DNA of 64,000 nt from Bacillota bacterium (GTDB lineage Bacteria; Bacillota_I; Bacilli_A; RF39; UBA660). Where the stretch lies: the NCBI GenBank assembly GCA_015059405.1, contig SVAL01000005.1, positions 34,016-98,015 of the forward strand. Reading direction: 5' to 3'. Below the pieces are notes generated by a model. It made no database searches and was not told the DNA's origin. It saw nothing but the letters and a program-made list of their open reading frames with translations. Made by a program: the position numbers and the translations under genes. This document shows, piece after piece, positions 2,671-60,778 of the stretch (the first letter of the stretch is position 1; each line of letters starts with the position of its first letter).

Positions 2671-3111
2671 ATGGAAGATAGAGTAGATTTAGAAGGATTT
2701 ATGTATGAAGAGGATGGATCTTTTAAACCATTAACAGCTAGTTCTGGAAATATAGATGGGGCACTGGCACATTTAAGAAATACTTATATGGAAGCAGAAA
2801 GAAATTATTTTGAAAAGTTGCTTTCAAGAGATAAGGTTAGAGAAGCTTTTTTCCAATATATTGATTGTGATAGTGATGTGTTGTTTGATGAAGCAATGAA
2901 AATCCAAGAGAGACTGGAAACAGGACAATTAGAAACTGTTGAGGAATTAGAAAAAATGAAAATGATGAATGCGGAAGAAAGAGATAATTTTCATATGCAG
3001 AAACTAGAAAATGCTGAAGGATTAATGTGTTTGTTTTTAGCAGCTACAAGAGATAAAGTTTTAGTAAAGGAATTATCGTTAACTTATTCAGGAAGAGAAA
3101 GACGTCATTAA
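2671..3111 (+). CDS. Hypothetical acidic protein.
   Basis: ORF with GGGAG RBS at 2657-2661 and ATG at 2671. No recognisable domain. Confidence 0.5.
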   Translation: MEDRVDLEGFMYEEDGSFKPLTASSGNIDGALAHLRNTYMEAERNYFEKLLSRDKVREAFFQYIDCDSDVLFDEAMKIQERLETGQLETVEELEKMKMMNAEERDNFHMQKLENAEGLMCLFLAATRDKVLVKELSLTYSGRERRH

Positions 3112-3191
3112 AAAATAAAATTGATGAGTAAATCATCAATTTTTTTTGTATAAAAATAAATGTTTTGTTAATCATATAAAAAGGTGATGAT

Positions 3192-3635
3192 ATGGAAAAA
3201 CAAAATTATAAAAAAATAGTAGATAGACATAAGCCAACAGAAGATAGACTTATGAATGCGATAGTAGCATTTTTTATAGGGGGATTAATAGGAGCGATAG
3301 GTCAACTTTTAATAGAGTTTTATTCTTCTTGGTTACAGATTCCTACACAGGAAGCTAGTAGTTTTATGATAGTTACATTAATTTTTGTATCTTGTTTATT
3401 TACTGCGCTTGGTTTTTTTGATAAATGGGTAACTTTTGCGAAGTGTGGACTTATTATACCTATTACTGGATTTGCACATTCTATGATGAGTAGTGGTATG
3501 GAATATAAGCATGAGGGACCTATATTTGGAGTAGGAGCTAATTTATTTAAATTAGCTGGTTCAGTTATTTTATATGGTATTGTAGCTGCATGGTTTTTTG
3601 GAATGATAAGATACTTTTTTTTAGGAGGAGTGTAG
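3192..3635 (+). CDS. spoVAC: Stage V sporulation protein AC.
   Basis: 147-aa polytopic membrane protein with the SpoVAC pattern (KPTEDRLMNAIVAFFIGGLIGAIGQ...). The order AC-AD-AE is conserved. Confidence 0.8.
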   Translation: MEKQNYKKIVDRHKPTEDRLMNAIVAFFIGGLIGAIGQLLIEFYSSWLQIPTQEASSFMIVTLIFVSCLFTALGFFDKWVTFAKCGLIIPITGFAHSMMSSGMEYKHEGPIFGVGANLFKLAGSVILYGIVAAWFFGMIRYFFLGGV

Positions 3636-4631
3636 ATGACTTTTACATATGATGATGTATATATAAATTTTTATAGTACAGTAGGTGGTCCTTATGAAAA
3701 AGATGGACCGTTAGGTAAGAATTTAGATAAAGTTTATACTAATTTATATGCTGGAGAAAAGACTTGGGAACAAGCTGAAGTTAAGATGTTATCTGATAGT
3801 ATAGATGTAGTTTTAAAGAAAAGTAGAAAAGATAGTAGTGATATTGATTTATTAATAAGTGGAGATTTATTAAATCAAGTTACAGCTTCTAGTTATTCAG
3901 CTTTAAAATTTAATATACCTTTTTTTGGAATATATGGGGCTTGTTCTAGTAGTGTAGAGGGAATTATTTTAATGAGTTCTTTAATAGATGGTAAAAAGGT
4001 TAAGAATGGGATAGTATCAGTTTCTTCTCATAATATGTCTAGTGAAAAACAATTTAGAAATCCAACTGAATATGGTGCACCTAAACCTAAAACAGCAACT
4101 TTTACATCTACTGGGGGTGCTAGTGTTTTATTAAGTAATCAAAAGGGTAAAATAAGGGTTGAATCTTCAACGATAGGAAAAGTTGTAGATATGGATCAAA
4201 CAGATCCTTTTAATATGGGTGGTGCAATGGCTTGTAGTGCTGGTGATACTATTTATAAACATTTAAAAGATATGAAAAGAAGTATTAATGATTATGATTT
4301 AATTTTAACTGGTGATTTAGGTCGATATGGTAAAGAGATACTTATTGATTATATGAAGGAAGAATATAAAATAGAGTTAGGTAAAAATTATGATGATAGT
4401 GGAACTATGCTTTATGATTTAAATAAACAAGAAGAGGTTTTAGCAGGTGCTAGTGGACCTTTATGTATTGCTATGGTTAGTTATAGTGATATTTTACCTA
4501 AGTTAGAAAAAGGGGTATTTAAAAGAGTTTTATTAGTGGCAACAGGAGCACTTTTCTCACCAACTTTTGTATATCAACATAAACCTATATATTCGATTAG
4601 TCATGCAGTTAGTTTGGAGGTTAATAAATGA
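3636..4631 (+). CDS. spoVAD: Stage V sporulation protein AD (thiolase-fold DPA-binding subunit).
   Basis: 331 aa, with conserved motifs GIYGACSS and GGAMACSAG. It is translationally coupled to spoVAC and spoVAE. Confidence 0.85.
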   Translation: MTFTYDDVYINFYSTVGGPYEKDGPLGKNLDKVYTNLYAGEKTWEQAEVKMLSDSIDVVLKKSRKDSSDIDLLISGDLLNQVTASSYSALKFNIPFFGIYGACSSSVEGIILMSSLIDGKKVKNGIVSVSSHNMSSEKQFRNPTEYGAPKPKTATFTSTGGASVLLSNQKGKIRVESSTIGKVVDMDQTDPFNMGGAMACSAGDTIYKHLKDMKRSINDYDLILTGDLGRYGKEILIDYMKEEYKIELGKNYDDSGTMLYDLNKQEEVLAGASGPLCIAMVSYSDILPKLEKGVFKRVLLVATGALFSPTFVYQHKPIYSISHAVSLEVNK

Positions 4632-8139: not shown

Positions 8140-8167
8140 TTGACAAAAGACCGGGGGGGGGTATGAT
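8140..8167 (+). promoter_or_regulatory. Sigma-A-like promoter TTGACA-N16-TATGAT. The spacer contains a G9 homopolymer (8153-8161).
   Basis: TTGACA at 8140-8145 and TATGAT at 8162-8167. The 16-nt spacer is aaagacc followed by nine Gs. It lies 29 nt upstream of the pilin-like gene's ATG at 8196, which has RBS agaggagtg. Confidence 0.5.
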
Positions 8168-8195
8168 TTTAGTAGATAATAGAGGAGTGTGTCAA

Positions 8196-10307
8196 ATGAA
8201 GAATAAAAAAGGTTTTACATTAATAGAATTATTAGCTGTAATAGTAATACTAGGACTTTTAATGGCAATTGCGATTCCAAGTGTAACAAAGTATATAACA
8301 GAATCAAGAAAGAAAACAGTAGTTAGTACAATAGGAAACTATATAACAGCAATGGTAAATGAGGTAAATGATTTAACATATACATTTACTGAAGCTAATA
8401 TAATTTATGCAGTACCGATAGAATGTATAGCACTTGAAAGAGGAGGAACAAATCCATTAGGGAAATGGATGCAAGCAAATAATAGTTATTGGGCATATGT
8501 ACTTGTACAATATGATGATGAAACATCTAGTTACAGATATGGTTTTACTTTCAAAGATAGTGCAGGATATGGACTATATCCAACAGCACAATCAAAACTA
8601 AATGAACAAGGTAAACAAATTCAAACGGGTTTAGAATTAACTAGACCTAAAAATGGAAAAGTAACTACTATAACAGCAGTAGATAAATGGAATGGATTTG
8701 ATGTGGATAGTGCAACAAATTTAGTAGTATTAGAATCTACATTAGAAGGTGAAGTAGGGGATGGTAAAAAAACTTGTACTTTGTGCCAAAAAGGAGATAA
8801 CTATAACCAAGTGGAAGAAGAGAAATTAGATAATATTGATACGCCTCTTCATTTCGGTATACCTTATGAAAATATTGAAAATGGAATTAGTGAAGCTTAT
8901 ATTTTTCATGAGGATGGTTCTGCAGATTATTATTATGATTGCGAGTTAAGTTATTCAGGAACGGCGGGTGATTATAGATATTACGAAGGTTATATTGAGG
9001 ATACTCTATTTTATGATATTGTCTTTCAAATTTCAGAGGATAAAAAAAGTATTACAGACTTTTGGGATTTTGATTTTGTTTATACACTTAATCGAAGTTC
9101 GACTTGGTGTGAAACTGAAAACTCAACACTTAGAAGTGCCAAAAACTCAGTGGCTTTTTGGCAGTATAAAGACAAAATTAAAACAATTACATTTCAAGAT
9201 AGCATAAATATTCCAAATGGTATTGATGACAAGTACAAATGGGATGTATCAAAAACACAAAGCGGTACAGTAATGGCGTATATTACACCAAATTCTAGTA
9301 ATTCAGATTTTTATGATTTATATATTCAAGGTGACGGAAAAATATATGCCCCGTCAAATAGTTCAAATTTATTTAAAGATTTTAAATATTTAGATAGTAT
9401 TAATAATATAGAAGTGTTGGATACAAGTAAAGTTATTACAATGTCTTATATGTTTTATAATGCCGGATATAATAGTACTGCATTTACATTAGACTTAGGA
9501 AATAATTTTGATACAAGCAAAGTTACTAATATGTCTTATATGTTTTATAATACCGGATATAATAGTACTGCATTTACATTAGACTTAGGAAATAATTTTG
9601 ATACAAGCAAAGTTACTAATATGTCTGCTATGTTTTATTGTGCAGGTCGTAGCAGCACTGCATTTACATTAGAATTAGGAAATAATTTTGATACAAGCAA
9701 AGTTACTGATATGTCTTCTATGTTTTATTGTACAGGTCGTAGCAGCACTGCGTTTGTATTGAATTTAGGAGATAAATTTGATACAAGCAATGTAACTACT
9801 ATGTATCAAATGTTCAGCGATACAGGATATAATAGTACCATATTTACATTAAACTTAGGAAATAAATTTGATACAAGTAATGTAACAACTATGTATAAAA
9901 TGTTTCATCAGGTAGGTACTAAAAATCCAAATTTCACATTGGATTTGGGAGATAAATTTGATACAAGTAATGTAAAGAATATGTATGGGATGTTTCATAG
10001 TGTTGGAAGTGCTAGTACTAAATTTACATTAGATTTAGGTGATAAGTTTGATACTAGCAAAGTTACTAATATGGGATTTATGTTTATGCAAACAGGGAAT
10101 AAAAATCCAAATTTCACATTGAATTTAGGAAATAAATTTAATACAAGTAATGTAACGGAGATGAGGCAGATGTTTTATCTGACGGGAAGAAATAGTTTAT
10201 TATTTAGCCTTGATTGTAGTACTTGGAATGTTGAGAAAGTAACTAGTTATAGTAATTTCAATTATGGTGTAGAAACTAAAGTAACTCCACCAATATGGAA
10301 ACATTAA
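8196..10307 (+). CDS. Modular type IV pilin. It has a class III signal peptide, a conserved pilin domain of about 205 aa, and C-terminal DUF285-type (BspA/Mycoplasma-like) 30-aa tandem repeats.
   Basis: MKNKKG|FTLIELLAVIVILGLLMAIAIP prepilin motif (Phe+1, Glu+5). The conserved Cys pair is C(IECIAL) and C(KTCTLC). About 9 repeats of LGNNFDTSKVTNMSYMFYNTGYNSTAFTLD follow. I prefer the start at 8196 over 8163. Confidence 0.8.
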   Translation: MKNKKGFTLIELLAVIVILGLLMAIAIPSVTKYITESRKKTVVSTIGNYITAMVNEVNDLTYTFTEANIIYAVPIECIALERGGTNPLGKWMQANNSYWAYVLVQYDDETSSYRYGFTFKDSAGYGLYPTAQSKLNEQGKQIQTGLELTRPKNGKVTTITAVDKWNGFDVDSATNLVVLESTLEGEVGDGKKTCTLCQKGDNYNQVEEEKLDNIDTPLHFGIPYENIENGISEAYIFHEDGSADYYYDCELSYSGTAGDYRYYEGYIEDTLFYDIVFQISEDKKSITDFWDFDFVYTLNRSSTWCETENSTLRSAKNSVAFWQYKDKIKTITFQDSINIPNGIDDKYKWDVSKTQSGTVMAYITPNSSNSDFYDLYIQGDGKIYAPSNSSNLFKDFKYLDSINNIEVLDTSKVITMSYMFYNAGYNSTAFTLDLGNNFDTSKVTNMSYMFYNTGYNSTAFTLDLGNNFDTSKVTNMSAMFYCAGRSSTAFTLELGNNFDTSKVTDMSSMFYCTGRSSTAFVLNLGDKFDTSNVTTMYQMFSDTGYNSTIFTLNLGNKFDTSNVTTMYKMFHQVGTKNPNFTLDLGDKFDTSNVKNMYGMFHSVGSASTKFTLDLGDKFDTSKVTNMGFMFMQTGNKNPNFTLNLGNKFNTSNVTEMRQMFYLTGRNSLLFSLDCSTWNVEKVTSYSNFNYGVETKVTPPIWKH
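9400..10210. repeat. About 9 copies of a 90-nt tandem repeat within the pilin-like gene. Three copies are near-identical at nucleotide level.
   Basis: The unit gacttaggaaataattttgatacaagcaaagttactaatatgtct... recurs with period 90 (9481, 9571, 9661 ...). Confidence 0.8.
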
Positions 10308-16248: not shown

Positions 16249-16255
16249 TTACTTA

Positions 16256-16285
16256 AAAAGACGATTAAAAATCGTCTTTTTTTTG
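16256..16285 (+). terminator. Rho-independent terminator.
   Basis: aaagacgat-taaaa-atcgtcttt followed by T8. Confidence 0.65.
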
Positions 16286-16678: not shown

Positions 16679-16710
16679 TTGACTTGTTTTCAATATATAT
16701 ATTACAATTT
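16679..16710 (+). promoter_or_regulatory. Candidate sigma-A-like promoter of nrdD. TTGACT at 16679, then an AT-rich -10 (TACAAT) after about 18 nt.
   Basis: ttgacttgttttcaatatatatattacaat lies about 25 nt upstream of the RBS agaggtaat. Confidence 0.35.
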
Positions 16711-16731: not shown

Positions 16732-19056
16732 ATGGAAGGAGTAAAAGTTATGGAAGACGCATTAAGTAACTTAAAGGTAGTCAAAAGAAATGGTAAAAAA
16801 GTTGATTTTGACAGTATGAAGATTGCAGTAGCAATTAAAAAGGGTTTTGATAACCTAAAAACAGATAGATATGCTTATTTATCTTTAGGGGTAGAATATA
16901 CTGAAAAAGATAGTCAAAAAGTATTTCAAGCTGTAATGAAGAGAATTAATAAAGAATATAAAGACGCTGAAAAGATTAAGATTGAAGAAATTCAAGATTT
17001 AATAGAAGAAGAATTAAAGAAAAAAGGTTATACAGATGTATATGAATCTTTTGCAGATTATCGTGAAAAGAGAAGACAATCTCGTGAAATGTTTGTTGAT
17101 GATAAGAAAATGCATAAGTTCTTAAAGACAATTGAAGGACTTGGATTAAAATCATCAGTAGAAGATAATACAAAAAGAGAAAATGCTAATGTAAATGGTG
17201 ATACAGCAATGGGAACTATGCTTCAATATGGTTCTACAGTATCTAAAGAATTTGCAAAAGCTTATTTAATGAAAAAGAGATATGCAGATAGTCATGATAA
17301 TGGTGATATTCATATCCATGATATGGATTTTATGCCAATGGGTACTACTACATGTATGCAAATAGATTTAGAAAAGTTATTTAAAAATGGTTTTTCAACA
17401 GGACATGGTCATTTAAGAACTCCTAATGATATTATGAGTTATTCAGCTTTAGCTGCGATTGCTATTCAATCAAACCAAAATGATCAACATGGTGGTCAAA
17501 GTATTCCAGCTTTTGATTATTATTTAGCTCCTGGGGTATTAAAGACATTTAAAAAACAATTTAAGCAAACTATTGCTGATTTATTAGATTATTCAGATTT
17601 TAATAAATTTATTAATATGAGTAGTATTGCTAAAGATATAGATAAATTAGATAGTATAGATGTAGATCTTACTATGTTTGATAAATATGCTAAAGAAAGT
17701 GATCAATTAAAGAGATTATTCTCTATGGCTTATGATAAAGCTTTGGCTAAGAGTGATAGAATTACATTCCAAGCTATGGAAGCATTTGTACATAATTTAA
17801 ATACAATGCATTCAAGAGCTGGTGCACAAGTACCATTCTCATCAATTAACTTTGGAACAGATGTTAGTTTAGAAGGTAGAATGGTTACTAAAAACTATTT
17901 ACTTGCAGTAGATAAAGGTTTAGGACATGCTGAAACTCCAATTTTCCCTATATCAATATTTAAGGTAAAAGAAGGGGTTAACTATAATAAAGAAGATCCT
18001 AACTATGATTTATTTAAATTAGCTTGTAAAGTATCTGCGAAGAGATTGTTCCCTAACTTCTCATTTATAGATGCTCCATACAATTTACAATATTATGTAC
18101 CAGGAGACTTTAAGACAGAAGTAGGATACATGGGATGTCGTACAAGGGTACTTGCAAATGCAGTAGATCCTGATAAATCAGTTACTCCAGGTAGAGGTAA
18201 CTTATCATTTACTTCTATTAACTTACCAAGACTTGGTATTAAACATGGTATTGTTAGTGGTAAAGAAGAAGCTGATATGGATAGTTTCTATGCTGAACTT
18301 GATGATCTTCTTGAAATGGTAAAAGATCAATTATTAGAAAGATTTGAAATTCAATGTAGTAAACATATTTATAATTTCCCATTCTTGCTTGGACAAGGTG
18401 TTTGGTTAGATTCAGAAAAATTAAAAGATAATGATAGAATTAGAAGAGTATTAAAACATGGTACTTTAAGTATTGGTTTCATTGGTCTTGCTGAATGTTT
18501 AAAAGCATTAATTGGACAACATCATGGTGAAAGTGATGAAGCTCAAGAATTAGGATTAAAGATTGTTGGTCATATTCGTAAGAGATGTGATGAATTCTCA
18601 GAAAAATATAATCTTAACTTTACTTGTTTAGCAACTCCAGCTGAAGGTTTAAGTGGAAGATTTACTAGTATAGATAAAGCTATATATGGAAAAATTAAAG
18701 GTGTAACAGATAGAAATTATTACACAAATTCATTCCATATACCAGTTCATTATAATATTACAATTAAGAATAAGCTTCATAAAGAAGCACCATATCATGC
18801 ACTTACAAATGCTGGACATATTTCATATATTGAACTTGATGGAGATCCAAGTGAAAACTTAGATGCGTTTGAAAGAGTAGTTAGAATAATGAAAGAAGAA
18901 GGAATTGGTTATGGAGCTGTTAACCATCCTGTAGATAGAGATCCAGTTTGTGGATATGTTGGAGTAATCGGAGACGTTTGTCCTGGATGTGGAAGACGTG
19001 AAGGTGAAAGTGTTAGTTTAGAGAAAATAACTACATTAAATTGTGGTTGTAAATAA
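16732..19056 (+). CDS. nrdD: Anaerobic ribonucleoside-triphosphate reductase (class III). The body has an ATP cone and a Zn-ribbon, and stops right after a degenerate CG motif.
   Basis: N-terminal ATP cone (VVKRNGKKVDFDSMKIAVAIKKGF). Conserved class III core. C-terminal Cys cluster CGY...CPGCG...NCGCK*. Confidence 0.9.
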   Translation: MEGVKVMEDALSNLKVVKRNGKKVDFDSMKIAVAIKKGFDNLKTDRYAYLSLGVEYTEKDSQKVFQAVMKRINKEYKDAEKIKIEEIQDLIEEELKKKGYTDVYESFADYREKRRQSREMFVDDKKMHKFLKTIEGLGLKSSVEDNTKRENANVNGDTAMGTMLQYGSTVSKEFAKAYLMKKRYADSHDNGDIHIHDMDFMPMGTTTCMQIDLEKLFKNGFSTGHGHLRTPNDIMSYSALAAIAIQSNQNDQHGGQSIPAFDYYLAPGVLKTFKKQFKQTIADLLDYSDFNKFINMSSIAKDIDKLDSIDVDLTMFDKYAKESDQLKRLFSMAYDKALAKSDRITFQAMEAFVHNLNTMHSRAGAQVPFSSINFGTDVSLEGRMVTKNYLLAVDKGLGHAETPIFPISIFKVKEGVNYNKEDPNYDLFKLACKVSAKRLFPNFSFIDAPYNLQYYVPGDFKTEVGYMGCRTRVLANAVDPDKSVTPGRGNLSFTSINLPRLGIKHGIVSGKEEADMDSFYAELDDLLEMVKDQLLERFEIQCSKHIYNFPFLLGQGVWLDSEKLKDNDRIRRVLKHGTLSIGFIGLAECLKALIGQHHGESDEAQELGLKIVGHIRKRCDEFSEKYNLNFTCLATPAEGLSGRFTSIDKAIYGKIKGVTDRNYYTNSFHIPVHYNITIKNKLHKEAPYHALTNAGHISYIELDGDPSENLDAFERVVRIMKEEGIGYGAVNHPVDRDPVCGYVGVIGDVCPGCGRREGESVSLEKITTLNCGCK

Positions 19057-19079
19057 AAGAAGAGAGAGGTAAAAGTAGT

Positions 19080-19250
19080 ATGAAAGAAGAAAAAGAAAAA
19101 AATGTAAAAATGGTAGGAGAAGGGGTAGGATTCGAAAGAATCAGAAGAATTACTGGTTATCTAGTAGGTACAGTTGATCGTTTTAATGATGGTAAACGTG
19201 CTGAAGTAGAAGACAGAGTAAAACACGGTGGAAAAGAAGTTTATCTATAA
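19080..19250 (+). CDS. Small ORF encoding the NrdD glycyl-radical tail (RRITGYL ... RVKH), separate from the nrdD body.
   Basis: 57 aa (MKEEKEKNVKMVGEGVGFERIRRITGYLVGTVDRFNDGKRAEVEDRVKHGGKEVYL). It has its own RBS agagaggt. It lies 23 nt after the nrdD stop and in a different frame. Confidence 0.6.
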   Translation: MKEEKEKNVKMVGEGVGFERIRRITGYLVGTVDRFNDGKRAEVEDRVKHGGKEVYL

Positions 19251-19252
19251 TA

Positions 19253-19816
19253 ATGGAAATTAGATTAGCTGCACCATTACAAAGAGATAGTATTGTGGAT
19301 GGTGAGGGAATCAGAGCAGTAATATGGACTCAGGGATGTATCCATAACTGCTTTGGTTGTCATAATCCAGAGACGCATGATGTTAATGGTGGTTTTGTAG
19401 TTGATACAAAGGAGTTGAAAAAAGAGATAAAATCTTTAAATGAAGAGACTGGTGTAACATTTAGTGGTGGTGATCCTTTTTGTCAAATCGATGCTTGTCT
19501 AGAACTTGCAAAGTTTTGTCATGAATGTGGATTAAATGTTTGGTGTTATACAGGTTATACTTTTGAAAAATTAATGATTCTTGCTGAAACACAAAAAAAT
19601 ATTTTAGAGTTTTTAAATGAAATAGATGTACTAATAGATGGACCATTTATTTTATCTAAGAAGAGTTTTGATGTAATGTTTCGTGGGTCTAAAAATCAAA
19701 GGGTTATTGATGTTAAAAAAAGTTTAAAGAAAAAATCTGTGGTTGAAATTAAAAAGTATCAATATAAGGAAAATAAAACCCCCGACAAAGAAAAAAAAGA
19801 AGAAATATATATTTGA
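19253..19816 (+). CDS. nrdG: Anaerobic ribonucleotide reductase activating protein (radical SAM).
   Basis: WTQGCIHNCFGCHNPETHD, the NrdG-type CxxxCxxC radical-SAM motif. Confidence 0.85.
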   Translation: MEIRLAAPLQRDSIVDGEGIRAVIWTQGCIHNCFGCHNPETHDVNGGFVVDTKELKKEIKSLNEETGVTFSGGDPFCQIDACLELAKFCHECGLNVWCYTGYTFEKLMILAETQKNILEFLNEIDVLIDGPFILSKKSFDVMFRGSKNQRVIDVKKSLKKKSVVEIKKYQYKENKTPDKEKKEEIYI

Positions 19817-20152: not shown

Positions 20153-20974
20153 ATGAAGGCAGATTTACATAGTCATACAATTTATTCTGATGGTATTTAT
20201 TCTGTATATGATTTAGTAGTAATGGCTAAAGAGAAAGAAATGGATATTATTGGGATAACGGATCATGATAATTTAGATAGTTATAATGCTTATTTAGAAG
20301 TTAAAGATAAGTTACCTATTAAGGTATTAATAGGAGTAGAATTATCAACTTGGTATATGGGTGAAAATGTTCATATACTTGGATATTTTTATAATAATTG
20401 TAATCCTGGTAGTGAATTAATTACATTTTTAAAAGATATGAAAAATAAAAGAATTATTCGTGCAAAGAAAATGATTGCTAATTTAAAAGAATGTTTTGAT
20501 ATTGAAGTTGATTATGATGATATTTCTTCTAAATATAAGGAAATTATTGCAAGACCACACATAGCTAGAGAAATATCAGAAAAATACAATATGCCTTTGA
20601 ATGAAGTTTTTAATAAGTATTTATCTAATAAATCTCCGGCGTTTGTTGCAACTTCTAATACGAGTGTTAAAGAGGCTATTGATTTACTTCATCGTAATAA
20701 TGCAATTGCTGTATGGGCACATCCAGTGCATAATAAAGGTAAATTTAATGATTTAGATATTATTAATATGGGAATAGATGGGTTAGAAGCTAATTATCCA
20801 GATAATACTAAAGAAGATACAATTTATTATAAAGATTTATGTAAGAAGTATAATCTTTTATGTACTGGTGGTAGTGATTTTCATGATCATATTTCACATA
20901 GTGAAGTAGGTACATCTTTTATTGAAGATGAAGATATAGATAAATTATTAAATAAATTAAATATAGAAAAATAA
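20153..20974 (+). CDS. PHP-domain metal-dependent phosphoesterase.
   Basis: N-terminal ADLHSHTIYSDG...GITDHD metal-binding motif, typical of the PHP/TrpH/YcdX family. Confidence 0.75.
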   Translation: MKADLHSHTIYSDGIYSVYDLVVMAKEKEMDIIGITDHDNLDSYNAYLEVKDKLPIKVLIGVELSTWYMGENVHILGYFYNNCNPGSELITFLKDMKNKRIIRAKKMIANLKECFDIEVDYDDISSKYKEIIARPHIAREISEKYNMPLNEVFNKYLSNKSPAFVATSNTSVKEAIDLLHRNNAIAVWAHPVHNKGKFNDLDIINMGIDGLEANYPDNTKEDTIYYKDLCKKYNLLCTGGSDFHDHISHSEVGTSFIEDEDIDKLLNKLNIEK

Positions 20975-20994: not shown

Positions 20995-22026
20995 TTATTT
21001 ACTATTATTAAGAATAGAAACTATTTCAAATAATTTAGATAAATCACTATAAATATTATATATACTATCCATTTCTTTATTTTTATTTCTTTTATTAGAT
21101 AAATATTTATTTAATATATTTTCAAAAGTAAAATTTTCAATAAAAACACTATATCTACCATCATTTTTAAATATTATATATTTTTTATTATCTAAAATAT
21201 TTTCTAGTTCATTAATACTTTCCATCATAGTTAAAGTTAAAACCATTCTAGCTTTTATTTCATCATTACTATATACTGAATATCTTTTAGAAAAATCTAA
21301 ATTTTCTAGTTTTAGTTCTATTGGACAAAAGTTATAGTAGTTGTTTATTTTTTTATTAATAATATTATTTATATTTTTGGGTACTATTTGAATTAGACTA
21401 TCATTTTTTCTATTCATATTAGAACCAATATAACAACCTACAAATATATCTTTTTTCTTTTTGGTTTTGTATGTTCTTTTAAATCTTCTAGATCCAATAT
21501 AAAAATATTCTTCTTTTGTTACGTCTACGTAAGTATAAATATTCATATCTCCTAATACGATAGGAATAGAGTCTAGTGATGTTTGAATATAATTTGATCC
21601 TGTATAATGAACATTGTTTAAATTAAATAGATTAGTTCTTTCAAAAGATGTTTGACTGATTCTGTTGTTTGGCATAATTTCTGAATCTTGTTCATTTGTA
21701 ATTAGAGTAATCATATCGTCTAGTATTTTATATTTAATTTGATTTAGTATTTCATTACGATCATCTTTATGAGAACTTTTTATAAATAGTATTACTGATA
21801 TATTATATATGATAGTTATTATTATAAATGCGATTAGGTATTCTTTATTAAAAAATATAATCCAAAATAAGATAGTTGGTATTATTGAAAATAATACACA
21901 AGTAAAAGTTAAAGATTTCTTGCTTTTTTTATGAATATTATCTATTTCTAAATAATATTCATCTAATATTTCTTTATATAAATCATTATAGAAATTTTTA
22001 AATAAATCTTTATTATTCATTTTCAT
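20995..22026 (-). CDS. Membrane protein, probably a DUF3137-type partner of LemA.
   Basis: 343 aa with an N-terminal TM hairpin. It is translationally coupled downstream of lemA with a 14-nt overlap. The DUF3137 assignment rests on architecture and synteny. Confidence 0.45.
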   Translation of the reverse strand: MKMNNKDLFKNFYNDLYKEILDEYYLEIDNIHKKSKKSLTFTCVLFSIIPTILFWIIFFNKEYLIAFIIITIIYNISVILFIKSSHKDDRNEILNQIKYKILDDMITLITNEQDSEIMPNNRISQTSFERTNLFNLNNVHYTGSNYIQTSLDSIPIVLGDMNIYTYVDVTKEEYFYIGSRRFKRTYKTKKKKDIFVGCYIGSNMNRKNDSLIQIVPKNINNIINKKINNYYNFCPIELKLENLDFSKRYSVYSNDEIKARMVLTLTMMESINELENILDNKKYIIFKNDGRYSVFIENFTFENILNKYLSNKRNKNKEMDSIYNIYSDLSKLFEIVSILNNSK

Positions 22027-22567
22027 TCATCCAATTTTTTAATTTTTTTTCTTCTTCTTTAGCTTCAAATAATGGATATTTTTTATAACCTAAAATGAAT
22101 GTTATTATATTAATTGGAATTATTTTGATAAAAATATTATAGTCAGTAACATGTGCATTATATGTTCTTCTAGCGGCAGATATTTGATCTTCAATATCAT
22201 TTAGAATAGTTTGTAGTTGAATAAAGTGAATATTACTTTTTAATTCGGGATAATTTTCTGATAACATAAAGATACTATTTAATTCATTATTAATCATATT
22301 ATTAATATTAAACTTTTCTTCATTAGTTTGTGAGTTTATTCCTTTTTCTCTTAGTTCAGTAATATTTTTAAAAGTTTCTTGTTCATGTTTAATATATGCT
22401 TTAATTGTTTTAACTAAATTAGGGATTAAATCATATCTTTTCTTTAGCATTATATCCATACTACTATAAGCATTTTCAATATTATTTCTTTTAATTGTTG
22501 CTTTATTAACTATTACAAATATTATTATTATAAAAACTATTATTAAACTAAACCATAAATATATCAT
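22013..22567 (-). CDS. lemA: LemA family membrane protein.
   Basis: N-terminal TM helix. Motifs RYDLIPNLV and RRTYNAHVTDYNIFIKIIPINI match LemA (PF04011). Confidence 0.75.
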   Translation of the reverse strand: MIYLWFSLIIVFIIIIFVIVNKATIKRNNIENAYSSMDIMLKKRYDLIPNLVKTIKAYIKHEQETFKNITELREKGINSQTNEEKFNINNMINNELNSIFMLSENYPELKSNIHFIQLQTILNDIEDQISAARRTYNAHVTDYNIFIKIIPINIITFILGYKKYPLFEAKEEEKKLKNWMNENE

Positions 22568-36872: not shown

Positions 36873-39134
36873 ATGAAGGAAAATAAAGGTTTTACATTAA
36901 TAGAATTACTGGCTGTAATAGTAATACTTGGTTTACTTATGGCAATAGCAATACCAAGTGTTACAAAATATATTACTGAATCTAGAAAAAAGACTTTAAC
37001 TACAACGGTAGGTAATTATATAAGTGCACTTGTTAATGAAGTTAACGATCTTTCTTATATATTTACTGATGCTAATACAATTTACGCAGTACCAATAGAG
37101 TGTATATCACTTGAAAGGGGTGGAACAGATCCTTTTGGATATTGGTATCAAGCAAATGATGCATATTTTGCATATGTACTTGTACAATATGATGATGTTA
37201 ATTCTAAGTACATTTATGGATTTACATTTAAAGATAGTGCTGGTTATGGATTGTATCCAACTATACAAGGAAATATAGATGAAAATGGTAAGCAAGTTAA
37301 AACAGGATATGATTTAAATAGACCAAAGACAGGGGAACTTACTTCTTTAACTGGTTTAGCTAAATGGCAAGAGTCAGGGTTTAAAGTAGATTCTTCGACT
37401 TATTTACAAGTTTTAGAAGCAACTAGTGAAGGCACTATAGGAGATGGAATATCAACCTGTACTTTATGTCAAAAAGGTGATAATTATGCTAAAGTAGAAG
37501 AAGACAAAATTACATGTAACTCGAATAAAGATCCTAGTTGTGATAGTACTCCTGGGATTTTAACAGGGAATGGTAAGCAAAACGACCCTTATTTGATAGA
37601 ATCTATGGAAGATTTAGTAGCTTTTGCTAATATTATTAATAATAAAAAATACGAGACTGGTTTTTATACTCCTATTATTTTTGAAGGTAGAAAAGTTTGG
37701 TGTAATTTTTATGTGGAATTAGCTAAAAACTTGGATTTTAAAGATCCGTCTTCATATGTTAATTCTAATACAAAAGAATTTGGGGATGTTAATAATAATG
37801 GAATTGTTGAACCTTTGATTGTAGAATTGAATTCAGGGGATGGATTCCCAACAATTAATTCAAATAACGATAATGAATTGAGGTTAGTCTTTGATGGAAA
37901 AAATCATTATTTAAAGAATTATAATTATAATATTGTTAATACTGATGCATCTAAGGTTGTTAACTTATCGTTATTTGGTGAGTTTGATGGAAGTTTTTAT
38001 AGTACTAATATAGCTAATTTAGCTTTGAAAGATGTTAACTTTTTTGTAGATACTGCAGGAGATGCTTATATAAGCCCTGTTATTAAAGAGATTAAGTCTT
38101 ATTATACATATCAATTATCTAATATAAGTGTTACAGGAAAAATTCAAGCTAAGTGTGGAGGGGCTTGTAATGTAGGAGGAATGGCTTATTCAATATTTAC
38201 TTATGGTAATGGTGCTGATGATGCTGTAAATAAAATAAATGTAAATTTAGATATAGATGTTTCTGGTAATAATGTTGTTGTTGGTGGTATTGCTAGTAGG
38301 TCTTCTAATTTAGGATATTATATTTTAGATTCTAATTTTACTGGTGATATTAATGTAAAAGCAACTAATGAGGCTTATGTTGGTGGTATTAATGCTACTT
38401 CTATTTATTTTAAATCAGTAAATTCATCTGTTAGTTCTGATATTCATGTGGAAACTAAATCGGGTGAAGTTTATGGGATTGGTAAAGGTACTATTTATAA
38501 TAGTTTTTATAAGGGTGATATGTATGTAAAATCATATACGCCTCTTAATATGGCTGGTTTAGGTAGAGATAATGTATATAATTCGTATGCAATTGGGGAT
38601 ATAATTGTTGATGCTGAATATAGATATAATTTTCCAAAAATAGGAGGTTTAACATCTTCTGGTCAAGTATTTGATTCATATTATATTGGAAATGTTTCTT
38701 ATAATACTAATACAAGTTATGGTGGTGGGGGACCGACTGTTTTATTAGGTTTATTAAGTGGTGGAAATTCTACTTTTAATTCTTTTTCAAGAGGAAAGAT
38801 TACTAATACTCAACAAACAACGTATAGAACTTTTTTTGGAATTTTAAGTCCTCATGATACGGATAGAGCAGCACCTGAAATTGTTAATAGTTATTATGGA
38901 GAAGATAGCTCATATACTGGAAATGCTCCTTGTTATTATGGTGGAGAGAAAGTAACAATTAATAATTTGAAAAATTCTAATTGGTATATAAACAGTTTGA
39001 AACTAGATAATAATTGGGTGTTAAAAGATGGTTATTATCCATTGATTAATAGATGTAATTTTGATTCTAGTACTTCTACTTGTGTTGCTACTACTGAACT
39101 TTTACCTAAACAAGATTGGGTTAAGGTGAATTGA
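36873..39134 (+). CDS. Modular type IV pilin, paralog 3, with a C-terminal GLUG-motif domain.
   Basis: Same prepilin and pilin domain. After GDNY comes ...GNGKQNDPYLIESMEDLVAFANI, then repeated VGGI/GGIAS GLUG-like motifs. Confidence 0.8.
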   Translation: MKENKGFTLIELLAVIVILGLLMAIAIPSVTKYITESRKKTLTTTVGNYISALVNEVNDLSYIFTDANTIYAVPIECISLERGGTDPFGYWYQANDAYFAYVLVQYDDVNSKYIYGFTFKDSAGYGLYPTIQGNIDENGKQVKTGYDLNRPKTGELTSLTGLAKWQESGFKVDSSTYLQVLEATSEGTIGDGISTCTLCQKGDNYAKVEEDKITCNSNKDPSCDSTPGILTGNGKQNDPYLIESMEDLVAFANIINNKKYETGFYTPIIFEGRKVWCNFYVELAKNLDFKDPSSYVNSNTKEFGDVNNNGIVEPLIVELNSGDGFPTINSNNDNELRLVFDGKNHYLKNYNYNIVNTDASKVVNLSLFGEFDGSFYSTNIANLALKDVNFFVDTAGDAYISPVIKEIKSYYTYQLSNISVTGKIQAKCGGACNVGGMAYSIFTYGNGADDAVNKINVNLDIDVSGNNVVVGGIASRSSNLGYYILDSNFTGDINVKATNEAYVGGINATSIYFKSVNSSVSSDIHVETKSGEVYGIGKGTIYNSFYKGDMYVKSYTPLNMAGLGRDNVYNSYAIGDIIVDAEYRYNFPKIGGLTSSGQVFDSYYIGNVSYNTNTSYGGGGPTVLLGLLSGGNSTFNSFSRGKITNTQQTTYRTFFGILSPHDTDRAAPEIVNSYYGEDSSYTGNAPCYYGGEKVTINNLKNSNWYINSLKLDNNWVLKDGYYPLINRCNFDSSTSTCVATTELLPKQDWVKVN

Positions 39135-59641: not shown

Positions 59642-59718
59642 GGGCGATTAGCTCAGTTGGTTAGAGCACCTGCCTTACAAGCAGGGGGTCATAGGTTCGA
59701 GTCCTATATCGCCCACCA
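59642..59718 (+). tRNA. tRNA-Val (anticodon TAC).
   Basis: Hand-folded cloverleaf. Acceptor gggcgat/atcgccc, anticodon loop cttacaa, TPsiC ggttcgagtcc, encoded CCA. Confidence 0.85.
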
Positions 59719-59724
59719 TTAAGT

Positions 59725-59800
59725 GCCGAAATAGCTCAATTGGTAGAGCAATTGATTTGTAATCAATAGGTTACGGGTTCAAGTCCTGTTTTCGGCACCA
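59725..59800 (+). tRNA. tRNA-Thr (anticodon TGT).
   Basis: Acceptor gccgaaa/tttcggc, anticodon stem attga/tcaat with loop tttgtaa, CCA encoded. Confidence 0.8.
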
Positions 59801-59807
59801 TTTATTT

Positions 59808-59891
59808 GGAGAGGTAGCGAAGTGGCTAAACGCGGCAGACTGTAAATCTGTTCCTTCGGGTTCGATGGTTCGAATCCATCTCTCTCCACCA
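59808..59891 (+). tRNA. tRNA-Tyr (anticodon GTA), long variable arm.
   Basis: Acceptor ggagagg/tctctcc, anticodon loop ctgtaaa, long variable arm, CCA encoded. Confidence 0.85.
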
Positions 59892-59897
59892 CTTGAT

Positions 59898-59972
59898 TGC
59901 CTCGTAGCCAAGCGGTAAGGCATCAGACTTTGACTCTGACATGCGCTAGTTCGAATCTAGCCGAGGCAGCCA
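59898..59972 (+). tRNA. tRNA-Gln (anticodon TTG).
   Basis: U1:A72 acceptor (tgcctcg/cgaggca), anticodon loop ctttgac, CCA encoded. Confidence 0.8.
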
Positions 59973-59979
59973 TATATAT

Positions 59980-60055
59980 GTTCCGTTAGCTCAGCAGGTA
60001 GAGCATTTGACTTTTAATCAAAGGGTCTGGAGTTCGAATCTCCAACGGGACACCA
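59980..60055 (+). tRNA. tRNA-Lys (anticodon TTT).
   Basis: Acceptor gttccgt/acgggac, anticodon loop cttttaa, CCA encoded. Confidence 0.85.
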
Positions 60056-60142
60056 TTTTTTGTGAAAAAACTCATTGAGTTTTTGATATAGATGTCTGAA
60101 AAGACTTGATTGTTAAGTTAAAATACGATACAATCTAAATAT

Positions 60143-60231
60143 GCCTGAGTGGCGGAATAGGTAGACGCACAGGACTTAAAATCCTGCGAGATTCAACCCT
60201 CGTGCCGGTTCAAGTCCGGCCTTAGGCACCA
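60143..60231 (+). tRNA. tRNA-Leu (anticodon TAA), long variable arm.
   Basis: Acceptor gcctgag/cttaggc, anticodon loop cttaaaa, long variable arm, CCA encoded. Confidence 0.85.
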
Positions 60232-60239
60232 ATTATTAT

Positions 60240-60332
60240 GGAGGAATACCCAAGTCTGGTTGAAGGGACCGGTCTTGAAAACCGGGAGGTCGTGAGAGCG
60301 GCGCAGGGGTTCGAATCCCTTTTCCTCCGCCA
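60240..60332 (+). tRNA. tRNA-Ser (anticodon TGA), long variable arm.
   Basis: Acceptor ggaggaa/ttcctcc, anticodon loop cttgaaa, long variable arm, CCA encoded. Confidence 0.85.
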
Positions 60333-60340
60333 TTAGATAT

Positions 60341-60417
<77 letters not shown>

Positions 60418-60425
60418 ATTAATGT

Positions 60426-60501
60426 GGTCTCGTAGTGCAGGGGTTAACACGTCTGCCTGTCACGCAGAAGATCGCGGGTTCAATTCCCGTCGAGACCGCC
60501 A
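60426..60501 (+). tRNA. tRNA-Asp (anticodon GTC).
   Basis: Acceptor ggtctcg/cgagacc, anticodon loop ctgtcac, CCA encoded. Confidence 0.85.
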
Positions 60502-60504
60502 TAT

Positions 60505-60580
<76 letters not shown>

Positions 60581-60620
60581 TTTTTTTAATAAGTAATAAC
60601 GATCATCTGGTCGTAATCAT

Positions 60621-60697
60621 GCGCTCGTAGCTCAGCTGGATAGAGTGTTTGGCTACGAACCAAAAGGTCAGGGGTTCGAATCCCTTCGAGCGCACCA
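60621..60697 (+). tRNA. tRNA-Arg (anticodon ACG).
   Basis: Acceptor gcgctcg/cgagcgc, anticodon loop ctacgaa, CCA encoded. Confidence 0.85.
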
Positions 60698-60701
60698 TAA
60701 T

Positions 60702-60778
60702 CGAGAAGTGGCTCAATTTGGTAGAGCACCTGGTTTGGGACCAGGTGGTTGCAGGTTCAAATCCTGTCTTCTCGACCA
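60702..60778 (+). tRNA. tRNA-Pro (anticodon TGG).
   Basis: C1:G72 acceptor (cgagaag/cttctcg) typical of bacterial tRNA-Pro. Anticodon loop tttggga, CCA encoded. Confidence 0.8.

Follow-up and report, generated by a model that had tools for sequence, protein, structure and literature searches.

A probable two-polypeptide class III ribonucleotide reductase with its predicted glycyl-radical loop on a separate 56-residue protein, widespread in gut and rumen bacteria

Many strict anaerobes depend entirely on class III (anaerobic) ribonucleotide reductase (RNR), the archetype of the glycyl radical enzymes, for their deoxynucleotides. To our knowledge, the radical glycine is carried by the catalytic chain in every class III RNR described, and exposure to oxygen therefore destroys the whole protein of about 80 kDa. 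In the canonical system, represented by the enzymes of Prevotella copri (8P23) and phage T4 (1H78 and 1H79), a single-chain NrdD is paired with the activase NrdG. Here, we describe an nrdD locus in a 64,000-nucleotide stretch of the chromosome of a Bacillota bacterium (assembly GCA_015059405.1, contig SVAL01000005.1, positions 34,016 to 98,015 of the forward strand; this whole stretch is hereafter the window, to which positions refer unless another locus is named). The locus shares with the canonical system the ATP-cone, the barrel, the finger-loop MGC motif, the zinc-ribbon region, the RxxGY loop, the C-terminal tail, and an adjacent nrdG. In contrast to canonical NrdD, the chain is interrupted after the zinc ribbon and before the glycine loop, the radical part is a separate 56-residue product, an extra degenerate pseudo-loop is found on the larger product (hereafter the body), and an Asp instead of a Cys occupies the position of the first zinc ligand.

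Small proteins carrying a glycyl-radical loop are known as spare parts of pyruvate formate-lyase (PFL), namely GrcA/YfiD in Escherichia coli and Y06I in phage T4. [quoted passage not shown] Like GrcA and Y06I, the window protein is a small stand-alone product in which a variable, probably disordered N-terminus precedes the radical loop, and by analogy it would be activated by a cognate radical-SAM (S-adenosylmethionine) activase and inserted into a large catalytic partner; as with Y06I, stand-alone copies occur in phages. Unlike GrcA/YfiD, it derives from NrdD and not from PFL, and it is the sole source of glycine for a body that has none of its own, rather than a backup for a full-length enzyme that has been cleaved.

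Other RNR classes provide precedents for division into two chains. The split class II NrdJa/NrdJb of Pseudomonas and Thermus phage phiYS40, as well as the NrdA of Aeromonas phage Aeh1, work from two chains (PMC9669993, PMC3653736), and their two consecutive open reading frames (ORFs) with a short spacer resemble the layout reported here. They nevertheless belong to other classes, their splits do not separate the radical-carrying element, and that of Aeh1 NrdA results from a homing-endonuclease insertion, none of which is present in our locus. Phage nrdD genes have also been found in several ORFs as a result of group I introns, inteins, and homing endonucleases, including T4 I-TevII, phiAS4, and the Jug phages (PMC3653736, PMC12880540). 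In those genes the pieces are separated by introns, inteins, or endonuclease genes, many of which are spliced out, whereas only a 23-nt spacer and a second set of translation signals lie between the pieces here; an intron or intein was ruled out by the length of this spacer, and an Rfam scan of the window at gathering thresholds returned tRNAs only. Conceptually, the arrangement recalls class I RNR (NrdA/NrdB), in which the stable radical also resides on a polypeptide apart from the catalytic subunit. Class I differs in its metallo- or tyrosyl radical, housed in a ferritin-like protein and transferred over a long range, as opposed to a backbone glycyl radical on a 6-kDa peptide that would presumably be inserted directly into the barrel. 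No description of a split NrdD or of an NrdD spare part was found in the searchable open-access literature.

The features on which the comparison rests are the following:

16732 to 19056, + strand: nrdD body, the 774-aa class III RNR catalytic subunit (profile matches, alignment with P. copri NrdD chain 8p23_A, and substitution rates)
16774 to 17076, + strand: ATP-cone (allosteric activity domain), body residues ca. 15-115 (Pfam PF03477, E = 1.4e-14)
18130 to 18138, + strand: finger-loop M467-G468-C469 in YMGCRTRV, aligned to TMGCRTRV of P. copri NrdD
18934 to 18996, + strand: zinc-ribbon region D735-R755, VDRDPVCGYVGVIGDVCPGCGR, aligned to NRCLDCGY...CPKCG of 8p23_A
18997 to 19056, + strand: body tail REGESVSLEKITTLNCGCK and stop, a degenerate "pseudo-Gly-loop" resembling the loop start of the small ORF
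19057 to 19079, + strand: 23-nt spacer, with a Shine-Dalgarno (SD)-like GAGG at 19066-19069, 10 nt upstream of the ATG
19080 to 19250, + strand: stand-alone predicted glycyl-radical subunit, 56 aa, MKEEKEKNVKMVGEGVGFERIRRITGYLVGTVDRFNDGKRAEVEDRVKHGGKEVYL (matches to the ends of NrdD profiles and to 8p23_A)
19253 to 19816, + strand: nrdG, radical-SAM activase (TIGR02491, 147.7 bits, cutoff 126.1)

Read directly, the body ends in ...CPGCGRREGESVSLEKITTLNCGCK, also written ...DPVCGYVGVIGDVCPGCGRREGESVSLEKITTLNCGCK, with the stop two residues after Gly772, and the spacer holds AGAGAGAGGT. The small ORF lies in frame +2 relative to the body, and a TAA occurs in its frame at 19050-19052; nrdG, with a length of 187 aa, starts 2 nt past the small-ORF stop. 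The ORF listing contained nothing between the body and the small ORF, a consensus scan revealed no terminator-like site between nrdD, the small ORF, and nrdG, and the 64-kb window holds a single intact Gly tail, with no second Gly tail and no second NrdD. The original prediction, made from the letters of the window, had described a 774-residue NrdD stopping two residues after a glycine, followed after 23 nt by a small ORF in another frame with its own ribosome-binding site. This description proved accurate at every position, except that the small product, given as 57 aa, has 56 residues encoded by 57 codons including the stop.

The body exhibits the features of a catalytic NrdD up to the zinc ribbon. 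It scored 1017.5 bits against NCBIfam NF005497 (cutoff 764) over profile positions 3-714 of 746 and 558.6 bits against TIGR02487 (cutoff 326), matched Pfam NRDD with its residues 150-757 (E = 5.5e-185; profile 1-531 of 562), and aligned with residues 9-708 of 8p23_A. Both the finger-loop MGC and the bottom-face cysteine C208 (in TTTCMQ) are invariant in the alignment of relatives, and by homology C469 is the predicted thiyl-radical cysteine, to which the glycine would pass its radical. We take the MGC motif to mark the formate-dependent type, by comparison with E. coli and T4 NrdD. The zinc ribbon has three Cys (C740, C750, and C753), with Asp737 (18940-18942) at the position of the first Cys in the P. 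copri and T4 enzymes. Throughout the clade, this segment reads RDPVCGY/H/F, with Asp in place of the first Cys of RCLDCGY; because RDPVCG is common to split and fused relatives, the substitution is considered unrelated to the split. A CPVC is retained in the zinc ribbon of Succinatimonas (locus L087). The RxxGY motif is absent from the body, which ends in ...NCGCK, and is found on the separate 56-aa ORF as RRITG26Y.

The small ORF matched the remaining ends of the same profiles (NF005497 positions 711-744; Pfam NRDD 533-562 of 562) and aligned with residues 707-742 of 8p23_A, which span the radical Gly loop, so that the body and the small ORF are complementary and together span the whole P. 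copri chain (9-708 and 707-742). Its Gly26 (codon 19155-19157), in RRITG26Y, is the predicted radical residue. In the glycyl-radical domain of P. copri NrdD, known from its cryo-EM structure, the zinc site is followed by a buried loop with the radical glycine and then by a tail crossing the surface (PMC11226230); the break is thus located exactly where the zinc ribbon gives way to the buried loop, and the small protein corresponds to the loop (RRITG26Y) together with the surface tail.

Database searches revealed a distinct population of short proteins, widespread in its 52-80-aa form. The 120 closest ones listed from a collection of 5.8 billion proteins were all 53-64 aa in length, and the 150 best representatives of 50%-identity clusters ranged from 52 to 193 aa, all starting with Met and sharing the core (V/I)GEGVGFERIRRITGYLVGTxDRFNxxKRAExxDRVKH between variable ends. 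No dedicated family for this protein was found in Pfam, NCBIfam, or PHROGs. NRDD was the sole Pfam match of the small ORF, with no match to Gly_radical, and a profile of 43 small proteins retrieved NrdD chains only from the PDB, with no GrcA or PFL chain even at E <= 10; membership in the GrcA family was rejected on these grounds. In GenBank, the small protein is deposited as MBE6150845.1 (hypothetical protein), adjoining the body MBE6150844.1 (annotated NrdD). Its 90%-identity cluster also lists 690-aa JGI proteins labelled "N-acetylated-alpha-linked acidic dipeptidase", most likely a clustering or bookkeeping oddity. One 132-aa protein (P0122) bearing the exact tail of the window came from a 513-nt contig and was disregarded as a probable chimera.

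The arrangement is widespread and not the curiosity of one genome. The exact 56-aa protein was indexed in 121 assembly blocks and seen on 83 contigs; three independent assemblies, from JGI, ENA, and Logan, share the 774 + 56 + 187 layout, and the window is matched by a 64.9-kb JGI metagenome contig and by an NCBI Bacillota metagenome-assembled genome (MAG). In one otherwise identical ENA assembly (ERZ28654305; L002, 4174-4908), the gene after the small ORF was called as 244 aa with no Pfam match on record, which may reflect an indel or a gene-calling difference relative to the 187-aa NrdG. A scan of one genome per GTDB species yielded over 593 relatives. The best 80 of these were classified together with loci fetched earlier and the window, after removal of near-duplicate loci. 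Short tail-bearing ORFs were found at 77 loci, with a truncated NrdD body immediately upstream in 63 and nrdG within about 100 nt downstream in 52, and six of the classified loci had the fused arrangement. The classified loci belong to gut and rumen anaerobes, including Bacilli MAGs (the clade of the window), Oscillospiraceae, Lachnospiraceae, Mogibacterium/Anaerovoracaceae, Peptococcaceae, Fibrobacter, Muribaculaceae, Desulfovibrio, and Succinatimonas, as well as one cultured isolate (bacterium 1XD42-1). Consistent with this picture, a search with a profile of the concatenated family returned 106 truncated bodies and 14 fused proteins among its best 120 NrdD matches; the fused proteins, with 71-76% identity and the same catalytic core, read ...CPGCGRTEADGVKFERIRRITGY... 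across the region.

Across the split loci, the spacer varies from -1 (a one-base overlap of ATG and stop) to 298 nt, and the frame offset is 0, 1, or 2 in 16, 26, and 22 loci, respectively; this diversity indicates that no frameshift or readthrough is conserved. Of 58 split loci, 57 have an SD-like motif ahead of the start codon of the small ORF, compared with 11% of random ATGs; going by these signals, the small ORF appears to be translated independently. Both parts are under purifying selection. By the Nei-Gojobori method, the ratio of non-synonymous to synonymous substitution rates (dN/dS) in nine pairs was 0.03-0.20 for the body, 0.02-0.13 for the core of the small ORF, and 0.01-0.35 for the last 20 codons of the body, values that are qualitative since synonymous sites in these pairs are near saturation.

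These last 20 codons retain a trace of how the split may have come about. The loop-start segment GV(G/K)FERIRRITGY occurs once in fused relatives and twice in split loci: an intact copy, VGEGVGFERIRRITGY, lies towards the start of the small protein, and a degenerate copy lies at the end of the body, reading GESVSLEKITTLNCGCK in the window and GEAISVEKLKELRRKYPNMP in many Clostridia. In some lineages the GY is still in register, as in the body tail EVLKKLNGYKKD of L030. Against shuffled controls, the window tail resembles VGEGVGFERIRRITGY with z = 4.0, and the comparison of body tails with the pre-Gly segment of their own small ORF gave a median z of 3.7, with values above 3 in 40 of 58 loci. 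Unprompted, MAFFT aligned the GVGFERIRRIT of fused and small proteins onto the SVSLEKITTLN of the body, and this misplacement of real loops onto the pseudo-loop is itself evidence of paralogy. Given such a degenerate relic of the Gly loop in the body, the probable and simplest origin of the split is that the loop start was duplicated in a short tandem event, after which a stop and a new start were gained. The pseudo-loop is still constrained, as indicated by its dN/dS. The tail ends in a CxC or CC pair in 104 of 106 bodies from the window's clade, and among diverse split loci the pair occurs in 31 of 57; in the window, where it is C771-G772-C773 (19042-19050), the first Cys is aligned with the glycine that carries the radical in the real loop. 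Elsewhere, it is the small protein or the fused protein whose C-terminus bears the Cys pair, depending on the lineage.

The small gene also occurs autonomously. There was no NrdD body at 14 of the 77 small-ORF loci, and at least eight (L011, L055, L056, L058, L059, L064, L067, and L074) had neither nrdD nor nrdG within about 3.5 kb. Such an orphan lies between a Crp/Fnr-type regulator and a rubrerythrin in a Crickella MAG (L011, 2778-4240), and among genes for rubredoxin, a flavodiiron protein, and cytochrome bd subunit I in a Mailhella MAG (L074, 336-3810); another adjoins a phage integrase (L067). In Succinatimonas UBA6849, an orphan copy (L059) coexists with a split locus (L087). In a survey of viral sequences restricted to the best 80 loci of IMG/VR viral contigs (L089-L168), the small ORF was found without NrdD body or NrdG within 3 kb in 66 loci, and split loci were found in three. 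Phage context was examined at two of them, where the small ORF (3001-3117 in both) lies beside an HNH endonuclease and an anti-repressor (L121) or with two PHROG families (L104). L109 is a further stand-alone viral small ORF (3001-3117). One common phage version (MYTRLHAVNGIVGEGVKFERIRRVTGY...) matches the Succinatimonas orphan exactly and closely resembles the nrdD-linked copy of the same lineage. A gene that spreads alone is expected to be useful alone, and by analogy with the role of T4 Y06I for PFL, the stand-alone viral small ORF may be an unrecognised phage auxiliary gene.

Longer variants of ca. 100-110 aa were identified in Ruminococcus and phages (L065, ca. 3357-3665; L066; L069; L076, 2936-3268; also L068, L097, and L117). 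In these proteins an unannotated N-terminal segment, EIDIYVAQLKxANPDKYIKTIDFTVDGEYVDVKY, is joined to the Gly tail, and the C-terminus of NRDD is the sole Pfam match; metK adjoins the variant gene in L065 and L076. The L065 and L069 variants come from Ruminococcus MAGs that also have a fused NrdD (L075 and L082) and are the closest thing to a true GrcA-like backup. In the cultured Eggerthella phage EL753P1 (OP172808.1; L169, 70-3087), an intein-like insertion interrupts nrdD within the MGC...CRTRV finger loop, and the gene ends in the split style (...CPQCHRKEFEAVPEEYRDMVDEIRKSGMR and stop), followed by a 102-aa ORF and then by a small Gly-tail ORF; the latter is frameshifted at RRI|TGY (2873-3001 and 2998-3087) and is only partly annotated.

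Taken as a whole, the locus is a class III RNR: the body alone lacks the defining class III feature, a glycine on the same chain, and the locus provides this glycine in trans. That it encodes a functional two-polypeptide class III RNR is, judging from its sequence and that of its relatives, highly likely. The body would supply the ATP-cone, the ten-stranded barrel with Cys208, Met467, and Cys469, and the zinc ribbon, while the 56-aa protein would supply the buried glycyl-radical loop and the C-terminal tail running over the surface. The body, the small subunit, and nrdG would be co-transcribed, and NrdG would activate the small protein by removing a hydrogen from its Gly26 with the help of S-adenosylmethionine. 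By homology with single-chain NrdD, the two chains would assemble in trans, the loop of the activated small protein docking in the barrel beside Cys469 and handing over its radical at each turnover for catalysis, with the tail wrapped around the surface of the body.

The original prediction had weighed a genuinely split enzyme with a detachable radical domain, comparable to GrcA/YfiD, against a duplicated tail or an assembly artefact. The split enzyme is strongly supported by selection on both parts, the SD motifs, the body-small ORF-nrdG order, and the intact catalytic residues, and the two-ORF arrangement proposed for comparison recurs in related nrdD loci (63 of the 77 with a small ORF). 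Formal profiles and 8p23_A bore out its view of the small ORF as a class III glycyl-radical tail, and shuffled controls and the behaviour of MAFFT did so for the body end as a degenerate copy of the radical motif. A duplication left its mark on the body as the relic of the Gly loop, yet the window holds just one intact Gly tail; likewise, the likeness to GrcA/YfiD stands as a functional analogy and falls as a relationship, there being no sequence similarity to GrcA or PFL and no replaceable glycine on the body. The artefact was excluded.

A separate radical subunit might also bring an advantage in repair. Oxygen cleaves glycyl-radical proteins at the glycine (PMC13450708, PMC8683613), and repair would therefore cost little with the radical on a 6-kDa subunit of its own: oxygen would destroy just a 56-residue peptide, exchangeable for a fresh copy as a built-in spare part. 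Orphan copies in phages and beside oxygen-defence genes fit this idea, if anecdotally. By analogy with GrcA, such a replaceable cartridge is a possibility that we hold tentatively, at somewhat less than even chances. A broader proposal, which we would back with similar reserve, combines a disposable 6-kDa cartridge, renewed through NrdG after damage by oxygen or nitric oxide, with phage or prophage cartridges that would keep deoxynucleotide synthesis of the host running, and with a pseudo-loop, its Cys standing where the real loop has the radical glycine, that would block or shield the active site during the exchange of one cartridge for the next.

Several points weigh against the functional reading or its extension to repair. 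The spare-part advantage is drawn by analogy with GrcA, and the link between orphans and oxygen-defence genes is anecdotal, being suggested by two loci. AlphaFold2 gave a pLDDT (predicted local distance difference test) of 34 for the concatenated pair without an alignment and, with an alignment in which the bodies were trimmed at CPxCGR, a mean pLDDT of 64 with residues 731-830 all below 50, so that structure offers no support. On neighbour-joining trees, which carry no support values, fused and split forms interleave; several transitions are therefore likely, which could mean that the split is easily gained or lost and nearly neutral.

This last point leads to the alternative that survives best, a neutral fission in which the two pieces reassemble with no gain in repair or regulation and the small protein is not exchanged. 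Easy transitions are suggested by the interleaving, fused relatives at 71-76% identity share the catalytic core, and splits are tolerated in other RNR classes (PMC9669993, PMC3653736). The lone small gene in 66 of 80 viral loci and the bacterial copies beside oxygen-defence genes would nonetheless be hard to account for if a free small protein had no use of its own, and purifying selection on the pseudo-loop of the body indicates that this segment is not a decaying leftover. Neutral fission is thus rather unlikely, while deserving to be taken seriously.

Much less probable is a role of the small protein like that of GrcA, rescuing some other, full-length NrdD while the adjacent body is inactive or otherwise employed. 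Orphan copies exist, and some Ruminococcus MAGs do combine a stand-alone tail protein with a fused NrdD (L065/L075 and L069/L082). However, the body lies upstream of the small gene in 63 of 77 loci, and in the window the small gene sits directly between the body gene and nrdG; the body keeps all its catalytic residues under strong purifying selection, and the 64-kb window offers no second NrdD or Gly tail to be rescued.

A programmed frameshift, stop-codon readthrough, or bypass that would yield one canonical NrdD chain is very improbable. An AAA precedes the stop of the body in the window and A-rich sequence follows it, and the +2 offset is common to the window and L004. Against this, all three frame relations occur (16, 26, and 22 loci), spacers range from an ATG/stop overlap to 298 nt, no canonical slippery site was found, the TAA at 19050-19052 in the small-ORF frame confines any shift to one or two codons, and nearly every small ORF has its own SD motif and ATG. 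Finally, an assembly or sequencing artefact or a recent pseudogene, in which a single indel broke a continuous nrdD, has next to no credibility despite the A-rich, low-complexity and hence indel-prone type of sequence (GC 26%), as the same arrangement is found in the independent JGI, ENA, and Logan assemblies and on the 83 contigs with the exact protein, is kept with differing spacers and frames in more than 60 species-level genomes, has dN/dS well below 1 for both parts, and could not be returned to a fused frame by a single indel, given some 30 residues in the body tail and the N-terminus of the small ORF that have no equivalent in fused relatives.

Should the two-polypeptide enzyme operate as proposed, nature would offer, in many bacteria of the gut and rumen, an example of a radical domain that functions in trans. 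Activase access could then be studied in a natural system, with a free 56-residue substrate in place of a domain that must swing out of the barrel. Split NrdD would open spare-part repair beyond PFL, so far a matter of speculation (PMC8683613), to experiment; if the cartridge were real, no earlier spare-part system would be known outside PFL among the glycyl radical enzymes, and class III would have its own equivalent of the distinct radical subunit found in class I RNR. The stand-alone phage copies suggest an overlooked auxiliary metabolic gene. In current databases, the small protein is labelled as a hypothetical protein or an NrdD fragment and the body as a complete NrdD; consequently, RNR surveys and censuses of glycyl radical enzymes based on the glycine motif misclassify these genomes.

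The surroundings of the locus were documented by consensus scans and annotation of the window, which is AT-rich (GC 26%). Two further elements lie upstream of the operon:

16255 to 16281: terminator-like hairpin of the preceding gene (consensus scan)
16679 to 16708, + strand: promoter-like site TTGACT-18-TACAAT upstream of the operon (consensus scan only)

The window also encodes FeoB, Tex, an ABC-F protein, and DUF285/pilin-like proteins, with a 12-tRNA array on the + strand (59642-60775). Two large proteins (8163-10307 and 36873-39134) have an N-terminal prepilin-type methylation motif, the first combining it with DUF285 repeats typical of Mollicutes-like Bacilli. Directly downstream of the nrd operon are a gene for a PHP-domain protein (20153-20974) and then a DUF3137 and LemA pair on the - strand (20995-22567); these PHP and DUF3137/LemA neighbours recur in the closest assemblies.

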